Assembly (NCBI GenBank): GCA_024686335.1
Contig: JAILCI010000040.1
Coordinates: 73,680-137,679, forward strand
Source: Bacteroidales bacterium
GTDB taxonomy: Bacteria > Bacteroidota > Bacteroidia > Bacteroidales > WCHB1-69
DNA: 64,000 nt
Direction of reading: 5' to 3'
Every line of letters begins with the position of its first letter. Position 1 is the first letter of the stretch. The notes beneath the pieces are model-generated. The model worked only from the letters and a program-made list of their open reading frames with translations, ran no database searches and had not been told where the DNA came from. Made by a program: the position numbers and the translations under genes. This document shows, piece after piece, positions 9,922-63,467 of this stretch.

Positions 9922-10087
9922 TTTCGGAGAAAACTGCGTCCTCGCAGTTTTTTTTTAACTCTAAAATGCACAAAAACCTATGCTTTATTTCGGAGAAAAC
10001 TGCGTCCTCGCAGTTTTTTTTAACCCTAGAAGGCACAAAAACCTATGCTTTATTTCGGAGAAAACTGCGTCCTCGCAGTTTTTTTTA
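9922..10087 (+). repeat. 2.5 tandem copies of a 65-66 bp unit, each with a CGGAG-tagged hairpin
   Basis: CGGAG-AAAACTGCG-TCCT-CGCAGTTTT at 9925, 9991 and 10056, with near-identical linkers (GCACAAAAACCTATGCTTTATTT). Lies between convergent genes. Confidence 0.9.
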
Positions 10088-10090
10088 CAT

Positions 10091-10945
10091 TTAAAATGCA
10101 GAAAATCCTATTCCTAATTTAAATTGCAACCAATAGGCCCCAAGAATTCTTCCATAGGAATACCCTTCAAAAGTCCTCTTGCTAAAATCAGTAAATCCAT
10201 CATATTTCGTGGATATGCCTCTATATCCGCCAAACGTGGTACCCAAAGAGGCTCCAACAGAGAGTTTCATAAAAGAAAGAGGCCAGAAATCGTAACCATA
10301 TTCAACCCTTAAACCAAATAATTTCCCTTTGCCGGTTCGAATCTCTTCCAAAGAGTATTTTACTTCAGGATCATACTCACCTCCAGGCATATAGAAGAGA
10401 GTTTGTTGGATTATAGGCACGCTATCTGTGGCATAGTCAGGAACATCGTCCATAATATATTTGGTAAGGAACAGATCGAAGTTAAATTTAAAATAGTGAC
10501 CAATAGGAGCCTCAGTATTTCCAACATACTGTTTATAATAAAACTGTATGCCATGAGCGGTGACATGGCCAGAGAAAACACTATAATCAGAATAGACGGG
10601 AAATTGATAACCTTGCTGATATTGACCACTATATAAATCATGCTGCATTCCTTCAAACGGAGAGGTGAAAAAGGAATATCCAGCACCTACCGTGCCTTTT
10701 TTCCAGACAGCCACCTCCACGCTCGGAGTAGCAAAGAAGTTAAGGCTGAGAATTCCATGAGACTTATCTTCGCCATATTTGTTAATCAAAGCTTCCGTTA
10801 CAAGGTTGGAATGAAGATAGGCGGGCGACGTGGTACCCTCCAAGTTGAAGATCACTCTCTTGCCAAGAAGTCCATAATATTGGCCGTATCCAACAGTAGC
10901 TACGACGACCATCACGAATAATAAAACTATCTTTTTCATACTCAT
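10091..10945 (-). CDS. Secreted hypothetical protein, probable outer-membrane beta-barrel
   Basis: Signal peptide MKKIVLLF...VGYG-Q, alternating aromatic beta-strand segments, and C-terminal FKLGIGFSAF with terminal Phe. Confidence 0.6.
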   Translation of the reverse strand: MSMKKIVLLFVMVVVATVGYGQYYGLLGKRVIFNLEGTTSPAYLHSNLVTEALINKYGEDKSHGILSLNFFATPSVEVAVWKKGTVGAGYSFFTSPFEGMQHDLYSGQYQQGYQFPVYSDYSVFSGHVTAHGIQFYYKQYVGNTEAPIGHYFKFNFDLFLTKYIMDDVPDYATDSVPIIQQTLFYMPGGEYDPEVKYSLEEIRTGKGKLFGLRVEYGYDFWPLSFMKLSVGASLGTTFGGYRGISTKYDGFTDFSKRTFEGYSYGRILGAYWLQFKLGIGFSAF

Positions 10946-18356: not shown

Positions 18357-18983
18357 TCAGCCTGGGTGAAAACGATCATATTCCCATTTTGCAACATTAG
18401 TCTCAATATATTTGGCAATTATATGTAAAGTGCTCTCATTTCGGATAATATGATCGAAGAATCCAGATTGCCAAACGAACGGTTTATTTTGTTTACGGGC
18501 AAATTTTGTCACTGCGCTTTTCAAACCTCCAACGACTGTAGACAATCTACCTTTACGCAACGAAACATTCTGCATTTTTTCATCCACATTGTTATTTTTC
18601 CAACGTAAATGTGAATTTGATGTGGTTTCCCTTGGCGTTTCACGCAATCCCTCAGGGGAAACATTTTGAATATTTTTGATGTTTAAGGGACGAAGAGAAA
18701 AATCATCTATTTCATCAATGATGATAATACAATGGAGATGATTGGGCATAACAACCCATAAAGGAATTTCAGCATACGGATAATGTGATGAAATATTATT
18801 GAATTGTTCGTTAACATATTGGCCAATGGTTGACAGGTTCATTTGACCATTAGAAATATTCCCAAAATAGTGTTTCTGATCTTTAGTACAGATAGTTATA
18901 AAATACATCCCTCCATTATAATCATGCCATTGAGCACGAGGAGAATTATTATTAAACCGTTTTTGTAAATTTTCATTTTTCAT
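18357..18983 (-). mobile_element. REP-associated tyrosine transposase (RAYT, Y1 HUH)
   Basis: SPRAQWHDY..GMYFITICT, VVMPNHLHCII (HUH), WQSGFFDHIIRNE, KYIETN..W (catalytic Tyr). AT-rich and flanked by GTAG REPs. Confidence 0.9.
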
Positions 18984-19070: not shown

Positions 19071-19127
19071 TGGTCGATGCACGCAGTGGTCGATGCACGC
19101 AGTGGTCGATGCACGCATCGACCCTAC
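19071..19127 (-). repeat. GTAG REP upstream of the RAYT, inverted, with two 16-bp half-copies
   Basis: (TGGTCGATGCACGCAG)x2 followed by TGGTCGATGCACGCATCGACCCTAC, the reverse complement of the REP at 18214. Confidence 0.9.
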
Positions 19128-36700: not shown

Positions 36701-39700
36701 CACCTCAAGAATACCGTTTACAGGAGTTGCAAAGGTGTAGTTTGCAGTCACGTCGGTGGTACCGCGCATTACCTTGTAGGAAGTCACCACGTTGTTGGCA
36801 GTACCCACATGCGTGATGGTACCTTCCACAGTGGCGGTCAAGACATCACCTGTCAACAGGACACCCGTAGTGTAGGTGTAGCCAGCGTCAGTCAAGGCGC
36901 TTCCGTCATAGGTCTTATTGTCGGAATCAGCAGTAATAATGATCGGGGTTGTGATCGGGGTTACTGTCTGGTAACCGTCAACAACCGTGAAGGTCACTTC
37001 GGCGAAGTTGGTGTTCGTGTTGGTGAACATAGCGGCGGTCAGGCCCATATTCGTCGTACCGACATCCAGGCGAGAGGCTGAAGCCGTACCACTGAAGGTA
37101 AAGTCAGTATTGACGTTATACAGACTGTTGTCTGCCGTAGCAACATAACCAGTCGTCGTATAGGTTGTGCCGTTGTAAACATTTGAGTTTTGATTACCGG
37201 TGATGGTCACAACCACGCTGTTGACTGAATGTACGGTCAAGGTACCCTCTGTCTTGGTGATATTGTAATCACCTGCAGAGGTGTTGCTGTTCAGCGTATA
37301 GGTGAAGGTGTTGGCGGATGCTCCAGTTGCCAACTGGCTACCCGTCACATTGTAGGTTGCACCCTCGCCATCAGCGAAGCCGTCGCCGCCGACAGTCACA
37401 GTACTGTTGGTCAATGCTGTACCGTCAAACACTTTGCTGTCTGTTGCAGATGTCAAGGTTACGTTACGTTTCGTCACCTCAAGAGTACCGTTCACAGATG
37501 TTGCAAAGGTGTAGTTTGCGGTCACGTCTACAGCGCCGCGCATTACCTTGTAGGAGGTCACCACATTGTTGGCAGTGCCCACATGAGTGATGGTACCTTC
37601 CACAGTAGCGGTCAGCACATCACCAGTCAGGAGAACACCGTCAGTGAAGGTATAACCGGCATTGGTCAATGCACTTCCGTTATACTTTCTAGTGTCAGAG
37701 TTAGCCGTGATGGTAATCGAAGTCGTAATCGGAGTCACAGTCTGATAACCATCTGCTGTAACCGTGAAGGTAACACCGGAGAAGTTGCTGTTCGTGTTGG
37801 TGAACTGAGTAGCAAGCAAGCCCATGTTCGTGGTGCCGACATCCGTTCTGGAAGCACTTGCGGTGCCGCTGAATGAGAAGTCGCTAGCCACATTATACAG
37901 CGTGCTGTTAGCAGTAGCAACATAACCGGTGGTAGTGTAAGCAGTACCGTTGTATACATTGGTATTGTGGTTACCAACGATGGTGACCGTAACGCCAGTG
38001 AGCGGGCTGATGGTCAGCACGCCAGGTGTCAACGTGATGGTGTAGTTGTCCGTCACATCGACAGTGCCGTTCATAATGCTATTGGTACCAGAGAATGAAC
38101 CATTATAGTCACCGGCATTGGTACCTGCAGCCGCGTATGCGATGGTCCAGGTATGACCGCTCACAAGGTTGTCGGCAGTGATGCCCGTGATGGACTGCTC
38201 CGTACCGTTGTAGGTGCGCGTTGCAGTCTCACCGGTCAGGGTCACCGGACGCTTGCTGATGGCGATAGTGCCCTCATTGGCGGTAATGGCGGTGTAGAAG
38301 GTCTGGTTCTCGATAGAGTAAGCATAAGTGTTGGCAACACCGGCAGTGTAGTCGGTTACGCTGGCAGGCGTGCTGATGGTCAGCGTGTCGCCTGTAGGCA
38401 GCTTGAATCTGGTGCTGTCGCCCGTGATGTGGGCAACCTCGGCACCGGCATAGGTCACCGTGTAGCTCGGATAGGTGTGGGCCTCTCCGTCATACGTCCA
38501 GGTCTTGCTGTTGGAGTTGATGACCAGGGCGCTGGTGTTGGCGGTCACCTCAAGGGTACCAGGCGTTGTCGTGATGTTGTAGTTGTTGGCATCGGTGTTG
38601 GCGTTCAGCGTATAGGTGAAGGTATTGTCGGATTGACCAACCTCCGTCTGGCTGCCCGTCACACTGTAGGTAGCGCCCTCGCCGTCTGCGAAGCCGTCGC
38701 CGCCGACAGTCACGGTACTGTTGGTCAATGCCGTGCCGTCATAAGGCTTGGTGTCGCCTGCAGAGGTCAGGGTCACATTGCGTCTCGTCACGCTCAACGT
38801 GAAGACAGAATCCACAGAGTTGTAGTTCGGGCAGGTTGCCGTCACCTTAACCATGATGGTGTCCACATCGGTGATGGACGGAGCATCGGTAGTTGATGTC
38901 CAGGTGTTACCGCCATCCGTGCTGTACTGGTAGGTTACGGTCGGAGCGGTGGTGCCGTAAGCAGCCGCTGCCGAGCTGGTGCCTGCCAGTTCAGTGCCGT
39001 CGTATGTCTTCGTGCGCTCCGTCGGAGGAGTGATGGTCAGGGCATCGCTCGGCGTAATTGCCTGGTAGCCATCCGTCACATTGAAGGTCACTGTCGTGAA
39101 GTTGTCGTTCGTGTTGGCGAACTGACTTGCAGCAAGGCCCATGAACGTGGTATCCACATCCGTTCTAGTTGCTGTAGAGTCTCCGCTGAACGTGAAATCG
39201 TCGACGGTGTACAGCTGGTTGCTGATGGCAACATCGTAGCCATGTACGCTGTGTGCGGTACCGTCATAGGTCGTAGTGTTGTTATGACCGGTGATGGTGA
39301 CCACAACCACGTCAATAGGCGTGATCGTCTGGTAACCGTCCGTGACGTTGAAGGTCACCGTACCGAAGTTGCTGTTCGTGTTGGTGAACTGGTTCTCGGT
39401 TCCTGCGTCTGTACCCTTCAAATTCATATAGGTCGTACCCTCTACCATTCTGGCAGCTGTCGAGTCGCCACTGAAGGAGAAGTCGTTGATGGTGTACAGC
39501 GGAGTGCTGAATGTCGCATCATAGCCATGGACACTGTGCTCAGCACCGTCATAGGTCGTGGTGTTGCTATGACCGGTGATGGTAACGGTAACGTCGATCG
39601 GAGTAATCACCTGGTAACCGTCAGTAACGTTGAAGGTCACCGTACTGAAGTTCGTGTTCGTGTTGGTGAACTGGCCTGCAGCAAGACCCATATCGGTCTG

Positions 39701-42700
39701 GCCATCGGTGTCCGTACCCTCCACAACATTCGTTCTGGTGGCGCTGGCGGTTCCGCTGAACGTGAAGTCAACGGTCTCGCCTGTCACCTTGTACAGCGTG
39801 TTCTCCGTAGTGGCCGTGTAGCCCTCCACAGTATGAGCCGTACCGTCGTATGCGTTCGTAGCAGTGTTACCAACGATGGTCACTTCCGCCGTAATCGGGG
39901 TAATTACCTGATAACCGTCAGTAACATTGAAGGTCACCGTACTGAAGTTCGGATTAGCATTGGCGAACTGGCTGGCAGCAAGACCCATATCGGTCTTTCC
40001 GTCAGTGTCCGTACCCTCCACAACATTCGTTCTGGTGGCACTTGCTGTTCCGCTGAACGTGAAGTCAACGGTCTCGCCTGTCACCTTGTACAGCGTGCTC
40101 TCCGTAGTGGCCGTGTAGCCCTCCACAGTATGAGACTCACCGTCGTATGCGTTCGTCGCCGTATTACCAACGATGGTAACTGCCGCCGTAATCGGGGTAA
40201 TTACCTGATAGCCGTCAGTAACATTGAAGGTAACAGTAGCAAAGTTCGGATTGGCATTGGCGAACTGGCCTGCAGCAAGACCCATGTCGGTCTTTCCGTC
40301 AGTGTCAGTACCCTCCACAACATTCGTTCTGGTGGCGCTGGCGGTTCCGCTGAACGTGAAGTCAACAGTCTCACCTGTCACCTTGTACAGCGTGCTCTCC
40401 GTAGTGGCCGTGTAGCCCTCCACAGTATGAGCCGTACCGTCGTATGCGTTCGTAGCAGTGTTACCAACGATGGAAACCGTCACGTCGATCGGAGTAATTA
40501 TTTGGTAACCGTCCGTAACCTCGAAGGTCACTGTACCGAAGTTCGGATTGGCATTGGCGAACTGGCCGGAAGCGAGACCCATGTCGGTCTTTCCGTCCGT
40601 ATCCTCGCCCTCCACAACATTCGTTCTGGTGGCGCTGGCGGTTCCGCTGAACGTGAAGTCAACAGTCTCGCCTGTCACCTTGTACAGCGTGCTCTCCGTA
40701 GTGGCCGTGTAGCCCTCCACAGTATGAGCCGTACCGTCGTATGCGTTCGTCGCCGTGTTACCAACGATGGCAACCGTCACGTCGATCGGAGTAATTATTT
40801 GGTAACCGTCAGTAACAGTGAAGGTGACAGTAGCAAAGTTCGGGTTATTGTTGACGAAGGATGCGCTGGTCAAGCCCATGTCGGTCTTTCCGTCCGTATC
40901 CTCGCCCTCCACTACATTCGTTCTGGTGGCGCTGGCAACCACGCCTGTAGCAAGACCGAAGTCATTTGCAGTGTATAAAGTGCTGCTGATAGCATCCACT
41001 GTATAACCCTCGACAGTGTGAGCCGTGCCGTCGTACGGCAGTGTGCTGTTGTTACCATGCAACGTAACCGTCACGTCGATCGGATTAATCTTCAACTCCC
41101 CATTCACCTTGCTAACATTATAGTAGCAGGTCACATCGGTCTCATCGCGCATCACTTTCACTGAGGAAACGGTGTTGGTCTGCGTGCCAGCTTCGGTAAT
41201 ACTACCCGTAACCACTGCAGTGACCACGTCACCGTTGATCAAAGCATGACCGTTAGCAGCATCAGCAGCAGCGACGTTGTAGCTTTCAGTGCCGAAAGCG
41301 ATGTTGTAACCGGCATCGGTGTGAGCAGTTCCATCATAATCCCAGGTATGATCAACAGCCGTTACCGTTAAGGTCTGGGCTATTTGCTCAACAGTTTGGG
41401 TGGTGGAGACTTTACAACCCTTACTGTCAGTTACGGAGATGGAGTAGCTGCCATCAGCCAAGTTGCTGATGGTATATACGCCATTGCCGAGAGAACCTGT
41501 ACTGCCGTTGGCATTCCATGTAACAGTATAGTTAGGTGTACCGGCAGCCAGATTCAAGGTGATGAAACCATCAGCCGTATTGAAACACTGGCTGTTGTAA
41601 TCTGTAACCTCAACAGTAGGTTTCGGGAATACATTCACTGTGGTAGTGGATGTAGTCGTACAGTTATTGCCATCTTTGAAGGTTACCGTAACGGTCTTCT
41701 CCCCTACTGAGCTCCATTGAGCCTCAATAGCATCGGTTTCACCCGTAAAGGTTCCGTCTTGACCAACGGTCCATACATAATCGCTCATTCCACTCTGCGT
41801 GGAGAGGTTGAATGTGGTGTTGGCCTCGGAAGTGTCGATACATACGTCGCCACCTGTCAAGGTCGGAACCGTCAAGGCATTCACCGTGATGGTCTTGGAT
41901 GCAGGTGTCGGGTTGGTACAACCGTTAGCATTCTTGTAGTTGACCGTGACGGTCTTGCTACCCGTAGTGGTCCAGGTCAAGGTAACCGTACTATCTGTTG
42001 ACGTACCGCCAGAGACCACGGTTGCATCACCCGTATTCCACACATAGTCGGTCATACCCGGCTGAGTCTTCAGCGTCAACTCCGTATTGGTGGCGGAAGT
42101 GCTGATACAGATATTATCCGCACCCTCAATAGTCGGGATCGGGTTCGGATATACTGTCACGGCATGTTCTGTAGCGGTCGGATTGGTACAGCCAGCTGCA
42201 TTGGTGTAGTTCACTGTAACAGTCTTGGCGCCGTCAGAAGTCCACTCTACCGTAATGGCATTCGTACCGGAACCGCTGATAATGTTACCGCCGTTTACAG
42301 ACCAAATATAGCTGGTCATATTAGATTCGGTGCTCAGACTCAGCACATCGGTCGTGCTGGAGTTGCTGACACAGATAGCATGATCACCTGTTATAGTAGG
42401 AGTAGAGATGTCATTGACTGTGATAGTAGCAGAAATGCTGGCCGTACAGTTGTCACTATTCGTCATGGCAACGGTGACGGTTTTGGCACCTGCTTGAGTC
42501 CAATATGCGGTAAGACTAGAGGTGCCCTGGCCGGCAGAAATCGTACCGTCAGATTCAGCCAATGTCCATACGTATGAACTCATACCTGAATTGGTATTTA
42601 AGGTAATCGTATTATTAGTAGTAGAACCGTATACACAGACAGCGCTGTTGCTCAGTACCGGAACAGGGACAGCCTTCACTTGAACCACCTTGGTAGTGGT

Positions 42701-61509: not shown

Positions 61510-61619
61510 CAATTTTAAACAATACGATGTTAACATTTCAGCAGAAAAATTTGCAAATATAACGGACTGATTGACAAAGGGTTGGGAAAGTGAGGGATTT
61601 TTGGACCAAAAAGGACGGA

Positions 61620-61910
61620 CTCGCTGCGCTCGTAGGTTTGCGCCCGGAGTTCCCGCAGATTTAGGATTTTTTTGTTCGCTGCGCTCACTGTTTTGTGCCC
61701 GCAGATTACGCAGATCTCGCAGATGAACGCAGATTTTTGTTCTCGCTGCGCGAGGAGATTACGCAGAGTTTTTTGTTCGCTGCGCTCACGGTTTGCTCCC
61801 GCAGATTACGCAGATTACGCAGATGAACGCAGAGTTTTGTTCTCGCTGCGCGAGGAGATTACGCAGAGTTTTTTTGTTCGCTGCGCTCACGGGTTTGTGC
61901 CCGCAGATGG
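61620..61910 (+). repeat. 101-bp tandem repeat (~2.4 copies) built of CGCAGA and TCGCTGCGC motifs
   Basis: GTTCGCTGCGCTCAC at 61674, 61775 and 61876, with internal CGCAGATTACGCAGAT..CGCAGATGAACGCAGA. Partial copy at 61620. Confidence 0.9.
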
Positions 61911-61927
61911 ACACAACTCGCTTCACA

Positions 61928-62254
61928 GTCAGCGACAGTGAGGAGCCGCCGCGTGCTGAAGGCACGCCATCCTAGTAACCCCGCACTCGCAGTGTGGGGT
62001 GGTCTCGCGCAATCCGGGGCGGGTCAGCGACAGTGAGGACACGCCGCGTGCTGAAGGCACGCCATCCTATTAGCCCCGCACTCGCAGTGTGGGGTTGTCC
62101 CGCACAATACGGGGGCGGGTCAGAGACAGTGAGGACACGCCGCGTGCTGAAGGCACGCCATCCTAGTAACCCCGCACTCGCAGTGTGGGGTGGACTCGCG
62201 CAATCCGGGGGCGGGTCAGAGACAGTGAGGAGTCGCCGCGTGCTGAAGGCACGC
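61928..62254 (+). repeat. Array of 95-96 bp double-hairpin repeats on the 3' side of tnpA
   Basis: GCGTGCTGAAGGCACGC at 61951, 62046, 62142 and 62238. The first three continue CATCCTA.TA.CCCCGCACTCGCAGTGTGGGGT. Confidence 0.92.
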
Positions 62255-62256
62255 AA

Positions 62257-62709
62257 CTACTTGTCTACCAGAAAATACCGCTCATCAATCGCAATCCCGT
62301 TATCGACCAGAAAGGCCCTGTACTCCTCAGCAAAGGAGAGTCGCCGATGATGCTCCTTCTGCCTCATGATATAGCCCACAACCATATCCTTGTCACGGAC
62401 ACTGTAACTGAAGCCAGCATACTCATGACCCCAGCCGCGGAAATCAGGGAAATTCGGGTTCATCTTCAGCCACTTGCTGCTGTCGGTCTTCACCCGCTGA
62501 ACGAAAGAGGAAAGAGGCAACGTGGGTGGCAAAGAGACGAAGATGTGGACATGATCCGGCATCCCGCCGATGCGGTAGGTCTGACACCGGAGATTCTTTG
62601 CGATGCCGTAGATGTAAGCGTAGAGCTCCCGCTCGTGCGCCTCGGGGATGGTCTTACCGCTACGGTATGTGCGGAAAACGATGTGGTAGTAGGAGGTAGT
62701 GTAGCTCAT
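62257..62709 (-). mobile_element. tnpA: IS200/IS605-type Y1 HUH transposase TnpA (150 aa), no TnpB
   Basis: YYHIVFRT, LYAYIYGI, IGGMPDHVHIFV (HUH), VKTDSSKW, WGHEYAGFSYS...VVGYIMRQKEHH (catalytic Y and Q). Confidence 0.9.
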
Positions 62710-62782
62710 GAGTAGTTGATAGTTGATAGTTGATAGTGGTCGGTAATCAGTCTGGGGAGCTTCGGTGGTCAGGGAGACCGTG

Positions 62783-63023
62783 CGGCAGCCTGTCACCCCA
62801 CACTGCGCTGCGCGGGAGACTCCTCCGTCGGGCTCCACACTGCACGCAGGGTGTCACGGACGGCAGCCTGCCACCCCACACTGCGAGACTACGTCTCTGG
62901 TGAGGGGTTACTAGGATGGCGTGCCTTCTGCACGCAGGGTGTCACGGACGGCAGCCTGTCACCCCACACTGCGAGACTACGTCTCTGGTGAGGGGTTACT
63001 AGGATGGCGTGCCTTCTGCACGC
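62783..63023 (-). repeat. Inverted array of related 88-bp double-hairpin repeats on the 5' side of tnpA
   Basis: Minus strand GCGTGCAGAAGGCACGC-CATCCTAGTAACCCC-TCACCAGAGACGTAGTCTC-GCAGTGTGGGGT. Two full copies with period 88 and one partial. Confidence 0.9.
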
Positions 63024-63033
63024 GGTTCGGAGG

Positions 63034-63041
63034 CAAAAATA
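63034..63041 (-). promoter_or_regulatory. -7 promoter box (TATTTTTG) facing the repeat array and tnpA
   Basis: TAnnTTTG on the minus strand, 11 bp outside the outermost hairpin. Confidence 0.5.
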
Positions 63042-63467
63042 CAAAATTGAGGAGAGATCGTCAAGTGTTTTGAGGTGTTTTTTTGTTATTATGTGTCAGC
63101 AATATACAATTCGTTATTTATCTTTTTAGGAGTTATTTATTAAATTTATGTAATGAAATTGGATAAAATGGGATAATAGTATGGACTTTTAGGGAAATTT
63201 CGGGAGGGTTTTGGGATGAGATTTTTGAGAAATTTTAAGGAAATTTTGGGTGAATTTTGGGTGAATTTGGGGTGGGTTTTGGGGTGGGTTTTGGGGGTTG
63301 GAGGGCGGGCGGGAAAGGGCCGTTTGGGGCGAAGAGGGATGGGGATATTTTGTTAATAACTTATTATATTTTTAAACAATCAATTGTTGATAAAAAATAT
63401 ATCTTTGCAGTTTGTATCTATGGGTGGCGGGGGTCCGCCGTTAACAATCGTAAGTATTTGGTATCCA

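Follow-up and report, generated by a model that had tools for sequence, protein, structure and literature searches.

The window, by which we mean the whole 64,000-nucleotide stretch of DNA analysed here, carries a tnpA gene which, together with the structured repeats on its two sides, probably forms a system of the REPtron kind that belongs to the IS200 side of the transposase family. The original prediction of such an arrangement is borne out by inward-facing flanking units at 50 of 64 homologous loci, by dispersed gene-less copies and by a repeat that co-varies with the protein. The sequence basis of this reading comprises the unit itself, its inward placement, its clade-specific stems, its dispersed copies, their presence or absence among species, the low copy number of the gene and the purifying selection acting on it.

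Architecture of the locus

The tnpA gene occupies positions 62257-62709 on the minus strand and encodes a Y1/HUH transposase of 150 amino acids with the signature of subclass 1.2, namely DHVH at residues 52-55, W93 and YIMRQKEHH at residues 113-121 (as laid out in Table 1 of PMC6006769). No tnpB adjoins it among the open reading frames of the window. Its location between two inward-facing arrays of hairpins, as originally described, was confirmed down to the positions of the individual features.

The 3' array (61928..62254, plus strand, on which its loops read GAA) consists of three successive sets of small hairpin, linker, hp2 and spacer, followed by a terminal small hairpin. The four small hairpins, GCGTGC-TGAAG-GCACGC, are located at 61951, 62046, 62142 and 62238 (spacing of 95, 96 and 96), and TRF describes the array as 3.4 copies of period 96 with 91% matches. 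The last of them, the gene-proximal hp3 (62238..62254, plus strand), ends 2 bp from the tnpA stop, and its 5' foot on the minus strand, GTTG, overlaps the stop codon. Four units had been claimed on this side. Four small hairpins are indeed present, but the fourth unit is a first hairpin only, so that there are three hp2 stems, and the second unit departs from the claimed sequence in having CATCCTATTA and GCCCC.

The 5' array (62840..63023, minus strand) holds two near-identical periods of 88 nt with hairpins at 62919-62935 and 63007-63023. Here the GAA loops are on the minus (coding) strand, and TRF reports inverted copies of period 88 (2.1 copies, 98% matches). Its hp2 contains an inner hairpin with a GTA loop, and the GAGAC-GTA-GTCTC sequence ascribed to these copies is present at 62885 and 62973. 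The count of about 2.5 inverted units is correct in so far as two full periods are followed by a degenerate third (62783..62839, minus strand), a broken copy spanning about 62783-62847, but the gene-proximal hairpin has been lost on this side. A promoter-like TAnnTTTG box is present where it had been placed, at 63034..63041 on the minus strand, about 10 nt outside the 5' array.

Other repeats surround these features. A microsatellite of 3.6 copies of 7 nt (62713..62737) lies directly upstream of the tnpA start codon, and a low-complexity G/T-rich tandem stretch with periods of 11-12 (63184-63300) follows beyond the 5' array, ahead of the next gene. On the other side, an array of a different dispersed repeat family with a period of 100 (61612..61908, plus strand) adjoins the 3' array, and the two are arranged and oriented as they are in the mosaic clusters found at other places of the source genome. 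A 65-bp tandem repeat of 2.9 copies at 9922-10111 belongs to yet another dispersed family. From 33737 to 61522 the minus strand is a single open frame encoding about 9,260 aa. Its product looks like a giant surface adhesin, since the N-terminal 1,200 residues include glycine-rich, Listeria-Bacteroides, SprB, PKD-like and HYR-like domains. The frame also contains a tandem repeat of 297 bp at 39578-40936.

The unit is not a chance pattern, because its profile matches 39 places in the source genome (G000) and none in the reversed genome. The copy number of the arrays depends on the assembly, as no contig from sequencing runs spans an array. Joints skipping tnpA were absent from these contigs (four DNA runs of one study), and the joints that were listed derive from other copies of the repeat.

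Classification of the transposase

TnpA is a Y1/HUH protein of Quentin subclass 1.2, neither a RAYT by protein criteria nor a canonical IS200 transposase. It matches Pfam Y1_Tnp and scores 57 bits with the NCBIfam IS200/IS605 transposase model NF033573, just over the cut-off of 55, and 24.4 bits with REP_Tyr_transpos NF047646 against a cut-off of 80. Instead of the Y---NP motif of RAYT class 2 it has YIMRQ. The motif of subclass 1.2 (Y---Q--HH with DH[IV]H and W) is present, with WG replacing the consensus WQ, as are the length of ~150 aa (about 148 expected), the short C-terminal extension, the low copy number and the divergent paralogues of the subclass. None of the residues H53, H55, Y113 and Q117 varies among 59 homologues, and the close relatives are from Bacteroidales, mostly of the animal gut. 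The structure model (pLDDT 84) predicts an extra helix at residues 126-136. Its fold matches the TnpA of IS200, IS608 and ISDra2 and the E. coli RAYT about equally (TM 0.57-0.63 versus 0.59), and fold search was rejected as a means of discriminating between IS200 and RAYT.

In a tree of 26 rows based on core domains, class 1 is split at 99/97 from three class-2-type rows, one of them the RAYT at 18357, which places TnpA on the IS200 side and apart from that RAYT, as predicted. The canonical IS200 rows group together (90/89), and the TnpA of the window is outside their clade. Monophyly of subclass 1.2 is neither supported nor rejected (78/4), and therefore we claim no order of events. The idea that this enzyme adopted its repeats independently thus finds no support, since subclass 1.2 falls outside the canonical clade, its monophyly stands at 78/4 and a single domestication is raised in the part of PMC5581495 available to us. 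The RAYT-type gene itself (18357-18983, minus strand) encodes a protein of 208 aa scoring 72.7 bits with NF047646, under the cut-off of 80, and a 16-nt repeat lies beside it at 19071-19117.

The three-hairpin unit across homologous loci

The repeat had been described as a unit of two hairpins. Homologous loci reveal that the true unit is an end of three hairpins: a small hairpin hp1, a 10-nt linker, a larger hp2, a variable spacer and a small hp3, which is a direct repeat of hp1. One such end precedes the gene and an inverted end follows it. From 80 fetched loci, 69 rows including the window passed 70% identity, and removal of five without flank left 64. All 64 (at least 70% identity, both flanks) have a unit match within 500 nt, as against 4 of 132 windows taken 2 kb away as controls; 56 units from these same flanks went into the profile, and the loci are kin. 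Units face inward on both sides at 50 of the loci and are not so arranged at the other 14, and some clades are without an upstream unit. A strict regular expression, which undercounts degenerate units, finds any unit at 62 loci and two-sided units at 31; the profile was used instead.

Exactly two profile matches are present at 16 of the 64 loci, and arrays are thus not essential to the arrangement. The window pattern of (hp-hp2-spacer)n-hp can be explained by slippage because hp1 and hp3 are direct repeats, and the tandem arrays of the window are probably local elaborations of the three-hairpin end. Expansion and collapse of one unit are visible across species at the L125 site.

Two clades have unusual arrangements. 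In one (L019, L031 and L049) tnpA is in the opposite orientation to its flanking units. In the other (L069, L072 and L073) the element is flanked on either side by the last 25-113 nt of the neighbouring gene (88-92% identity), an unusually long duplication, and the conserved bases beside the hairpins also differ.

Co-variation of repeat and enzyme

The source genome contains five subclass-1.2 paralogues, at 100, 80, 42, 35 and 31% identity, each with its own flanking repeat, which is dispersed at 18, 4, 16, 4 and 1 places, respectively. Flanks of these paralogues cross-match only between the 80% pair. Over protein identities of 31-84% the stem differs in sequence from one protein clade to the next, while its length of 6 bp and a GNA loop are conserved, as is the orientation of the hairpin relative to the gene; with the strict rule, 8 of the 41 loci yielded no hairpin. 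The repeat therefore co-varies with the protein, as had been anticipated. In Bacteroidota generally, a flank repeat of at least 30 nt is present at 17 of 23 subclass-1.2 loci, three loci having been re-labelled from the tree and five fetched loci having given no usable ORF. The canonical IS200 loci, 7 in number, have no such repeat, and among 100 control ORFs three have one. The property 'no REP', which is tabulated for subclass 1.2 in PMC6006769, does not apply to the loci studied here, where cognate repeats are present.

Dispersed gene-less copies

Gene-less copies of the unit are found in the source genome as expected, with 24 units at 19 places away from the paralogues (profile score of at least 30 bits; none in the reversed genome). 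They are single units, not doublets, and lie between long ORFs. Sixteen of the 19 places are within fixed-order mosaic clusters with other repeat families, and 11 share their cluster with the repeat of the C8 paralogue. The former proportion weakens the attribution of these copies to this TnpA alone; another enzyme may have dispersed the mosaic copies in composite form. The clusters are located in C5, C12, C34, C36, C55 and C61 of the source genome and at 61612-61967 of the window. They involve at least three unrelated families, in the order period-100 family, three-hairpin unit and unit of the C8 paralogue, and the fixed order suggests a composite copied as one piece.

Other genera, among them the related genus of G178, give a clearer view, with copies of another form. 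In the 11 stretches fetched around pattern pairs of genome G178, 12 inverted doublets lacking the gene were called (183-217 nt), and G177 has three; in both, a doublet is the element with its gene replaced by 10-25 nt. Seven of the ten genomes of the G178 genus have 7-46 pattern matches (none for the reversed pattern), and all seven have a homologue of at least 70% identity, truncated in G181. The three pattern-negative genomes have only homologues of 48-60%.

Three doublets are missing from the corresponding site of 3 of 4, 3 of 4 and 4 of 5 aligned relatives, which are kin, and either gain or loss could underlie the difference. The filled allele at L125 is longer by about 330 nt and shows no target duplication. 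Because the added sequence includes about 80 and 48 nt outside the hairpins, and because the left flank recurs at three other sites, the comparison of alleles points to insertion with captured flanks. This pattern resembles the cutting by E. coli TnpA-REP at CT 5' or 3' of a hairpin (described in the available part of PMC8266576). Filled and empty alleles here are too diverged to fix a conserved cleavage dinucleotide. No usable empty allele was found for L130 and L133, nor one of the window's own site among 60 relatives, in which only tnpA and the repeats matched. Compared with L124:2637-2837, locus L271 of G180 has a different small gene with its own inverted GGGGAG-type repeats, and G178, G181 and G188 have the doublet. 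Doublet sites appear to be hot spots at which several systems of gene plus repeat settle.

Mobility of the gene

Judged from its neighbours, tnpA appears to behave between an IS and a non-jumping RAYT, because long residence and few divergent copies are combined with many contexts. The 78 loci fall into up to 33 groups by neighbouring genes (contexts), an upper bound, since short contigs split groups and L012 and L024 may be one site; a quick tree of the 78 close homologues was used only for viewing contexts. L012 and L024 were rejected as a case of clean relocation, as they share a 129-nt upstream stretch and may be one site where the gene was gained or lost. Residence can be long: six context groups of same-site orthologues have median dS of 0.35-1.27 and dN/dS of 0.04-0.11 (saturated pairs dropped), and one site is occupied in 13 species at 77-95% aa identity. 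The neighbouring gene at this site, from a reading of its sequence, is presumably asnS. Genomes carry few and divergent copies, with paralogues of the same assembly 71-79% identical in three of six pairs and 30% in one. A 97% pair is at overlapping contig ends and likely tandem, and a 95% pair has the same neighbours. One subclass-1.2 gene is on a 602-kb record labelled plasmid.

The many contexts could also reflect a slow autonomous IS with long, inverted, structured ends (TIRtron-like), the whole unit of which transposes and of which the doublets are MITEs formed by internal deletion. The doublet is exactly the element with its gene replaced by 10-25 nt, a site with a doublet in G178 is occupied in G180 by a complete element from a different clade, and in L041, L045 and L053 the similarity between contexts begins and ends near the outer hairpins. 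All of this is in keeping with such an IS, which we nevertheless consider unlikely. Near-identical dispersed copies of the gene are absent, whereas a canonical IS200 genome (G294) shows dozens of equal-scoring copies; the residence in 13 species is long; the flanks captured at L125 are variable and not fixed ends; and the inverted ends lie on opposite strands, whereas excision of single-strand IS200 works otherwise.

Strand and nature of the repeat

On the strand with TTC loops, the foot of hp3 reads GTAG in 30, GTTG in 7 and GTGG in 4 of the 54 distinct units, and that of the outer hairpin hp1 is mostly ATNN. The 5' foot is the position of IS200 guides and of the GTAG of REPs. The designation of the repeats as non-GTAG is therefore valid for one strand only, the other having GTAG 5' of hp3 in those 30 units, with GTTG in the window's own copy. 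On the GNA-loop strand, non-standard pairs are G-T in 42 cases and A-C in one among 56 units, alike upstream and downstream, a count which is inflated by kin and an excess of G-T which mutational bias could produce. The GNA strand folds lower in 42 of 54 units. Stem pairing is kept through changes of C-G to T-A at two positions. GAA or GGA makes up the loop in 94 of 108 cases, and mini-hairpins with GNA loops have a much higher stability as DNA than as RNA (PMC13037366, in the part available). We lean slightly towards the GNA-loop strand, rather than the TTC-loop strand, as the one that folds, and DNA fits better than RNA as the form of the unit.

Part of the unit resembles a catalogued RNA. 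The segment hp2-linker-hp1 at 62047..62094 (minus strand) matches Rfam RF01687, Acido-Lenti-1, at 26.3 bits against a cut-off of 37 (E 0.0024), and the repeat of the C8 paralogue passes the cut-off with 38.8 bits. In Acido-Lenti-1 the consensus runs hp2, linker, hp1 on the TTC strand, and its spacing equals that of the unit. The source genome has 33 matches at E <= 0.01, five of them over the cut-off, and matches occur in 23 of 101 genomes of the phylum. A tnpA lies within 1.5 kb of the match at 7 of 30 fetched loci, which is expected for dispersed copies and is not proof. Acido-Lenti-1 is listed as a probable RNA, not cis-regulatory, in the accessible part of Weinberg 2010 (PMC2864571). GUCCY-hairpin, a candidate match to other subclass-1.2 repeats, was dropped on its alignment.

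The proposal that the array is transcribed from the upstream box into a structured, Acido-Lenti-1-like RNA that regulates or guides TnpA is disfavoured, and we regard it as very improbable in spite of the RF01687 match, the promoter-like box situated 10 nt beyond the 5' array and the tolerance of wobble pairs in RNA too. The box occurs at 0.5 per kb per strand in the source genome and is weak alone; in 64 upstream flanks it is sense in 18 and antisense in 19. The 3' unit is antisense, the same wobble bias is found in sense upstream and antisense downstream units, and some clades do without the upstream unit. The GAA and GGA loops are of a DNA-stabilising type (PMC13037366, as far as available), Rfam models the strand opposite to the wobble-favoured one, and a variable guide-like segment paired to a target was not found. 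It is scarcely credible that the repeats are passive products of slippage, hitch-hiking in intergenic hot spots and spread by recombination or another enzyme beside a relic tnpA, for although the arrays are clearly local expansions and most dispersed units of the source genome are in fixed-order mosaics with other families, tnpA is under purifying selection, the stems show compensatory and clade-specific changes and free-standing doublets occur in other genera.

A possible mechanism and its implications

In the REPtron-like system that we favour, TnpA would bind the three-hairpin repeat as folded single-stranded DNA and nick nearby by means of Tyr113 with His53, His55 and Gln117. Gene-less units or inverted doublets would slowly be copied to other intergenic sites, as is thought for RAYT and REP. 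Tandem arrays would arise locally, through slippage or unequal exchange between hp1 and hp3, and the gene itself would move rarely, together with its two ends. Several observations speak against the REPtron-like reading. Copy numbers, in the tens, are low compared with Proteobacterial REPs; with up to 33 contexts for 78 loci, the gene is more mobile than the 'non-jumping' RAYTs; the dispersed copies of the source genome are single and mosaic-bound; 14 of 64 loci are not two-sided and inward; and no REP is reported for the subclass in the available part of PMC6006769.

A more far-reaching version is tentative. The subclass-1.2 TnpAs may constitute a phylum-wide third HUH repeat system between IS200 and RAYT, reading the GNA-loop strand of three-hairpin ssDNA, with conserved bases on the 3' side in place of a 5' guide tetranucleotide, and moving doublets and occasionally the gene. 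Acido-Lenti-1 might then be a wrong-strand reading of a DNA substrate. The REPtron-like reading would change the annotation of many genes of Bacteroidota now called 'IS200/IS605 transposase', and probably also that of an Rfam entry which has stood since 2010 as an RNA without known function. A widespread uncharacterised HUH subclass gains a defined candidate substrate, of which binding, strand and cleavage site can be addressed with short oligonucleotides. The system also bears on the origin of REP/RAYT from IS200-like elements, being a class-1 enzyme with REPIN-like doublets that still changes site occasionally. The kind of system was already known, and a RAYT-like IS200 group had been noted in 2017 (PMC5581495, available part), which limits the surprise.

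Comparison with known systems

The protein agrees with subclass 1.2 as characterised in the available part of PMC6006769, sharing Y---Q--HH, about 150 aa, a short C-terminal extension, low copy number, divergent paralogues and occurrence in Bacteroidetes. That source gives REP as 'no' and places the subclass close to IS200 without IS properties and generally without terminal IS200 structures; in contrast, the loci studied here have cognate three-hairpin repeats that flank the gene and disperse. IS200 Group 3 of Bertels, Gallie and Rainey (2017, PMC5581495), as far as the available text goes, has no duplicates, none on plasmids and abundant flanking 16-mers (21 occurrences), and is the closest IS200 group to RAYTs, for which a single domestication is suggested. 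Its repeats are undescribed in that text, and it may be the same as subclass 1.2. Searches of the openly accessible literature brought up no paper that ties cognate repeats to subclass 1.2 or to Acido-Lenti-1. Acido-Lenti-1 itself is catalogued as an RNA, with two hairpins only and on the TTC-loop strand, and the window unit falls below its cut-off.

TIRtrons/TIRYTs (Di Nocera 2013, PMC3733652) and class 3 TnpA-Y1 (Quentin 2018), in the available parts of these sources, likewise have Y1 genes with long inverted repeats or atypical hairpins and dispersed, non-GTAG families. However, TIRYTs are mostly of subclass 2.1 with an HTH tail, and class 3 has YxxxxQ and a CnGA foot. With canonical IS200/IS605 elements (IS608, ISDra2 and IS200; subclass 1.1) the fold and catalytic core are shared. 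Those elements have one subterminal hairpin per end, both on one strand, and fixed ends, whereas here the multi-hairpin ends are inverted across the gene, the captured flanks are variable, identical multi-copies and tnpB are lacking and the enzyme falls outside the canonical clade.

The REPtron (available parts of PMC8266576 and of bioRxiv 2021.07.10.451892; PDB 4er8) shares with the present system a low-copy HUH gene, inverted flanking palindromes (here cognate, at 50 of 64 loci), intergenic gene-less doublets, co-evolution and the lack of target duplication, the dispersed extragenic copies here being doublets in G178 and G177 and single units in the source genome. It differs in its protein, which has YxxxNP in TnpA-REP/RAYT instead of the class 1 YxxxQ found here, and in the REP, which is one hairpin, whereas the three-hairpin unit is about 90-120 nt long and its foot is not uniformly GTAG. 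Compared with a RAYT, the gene described here changes its site more often.
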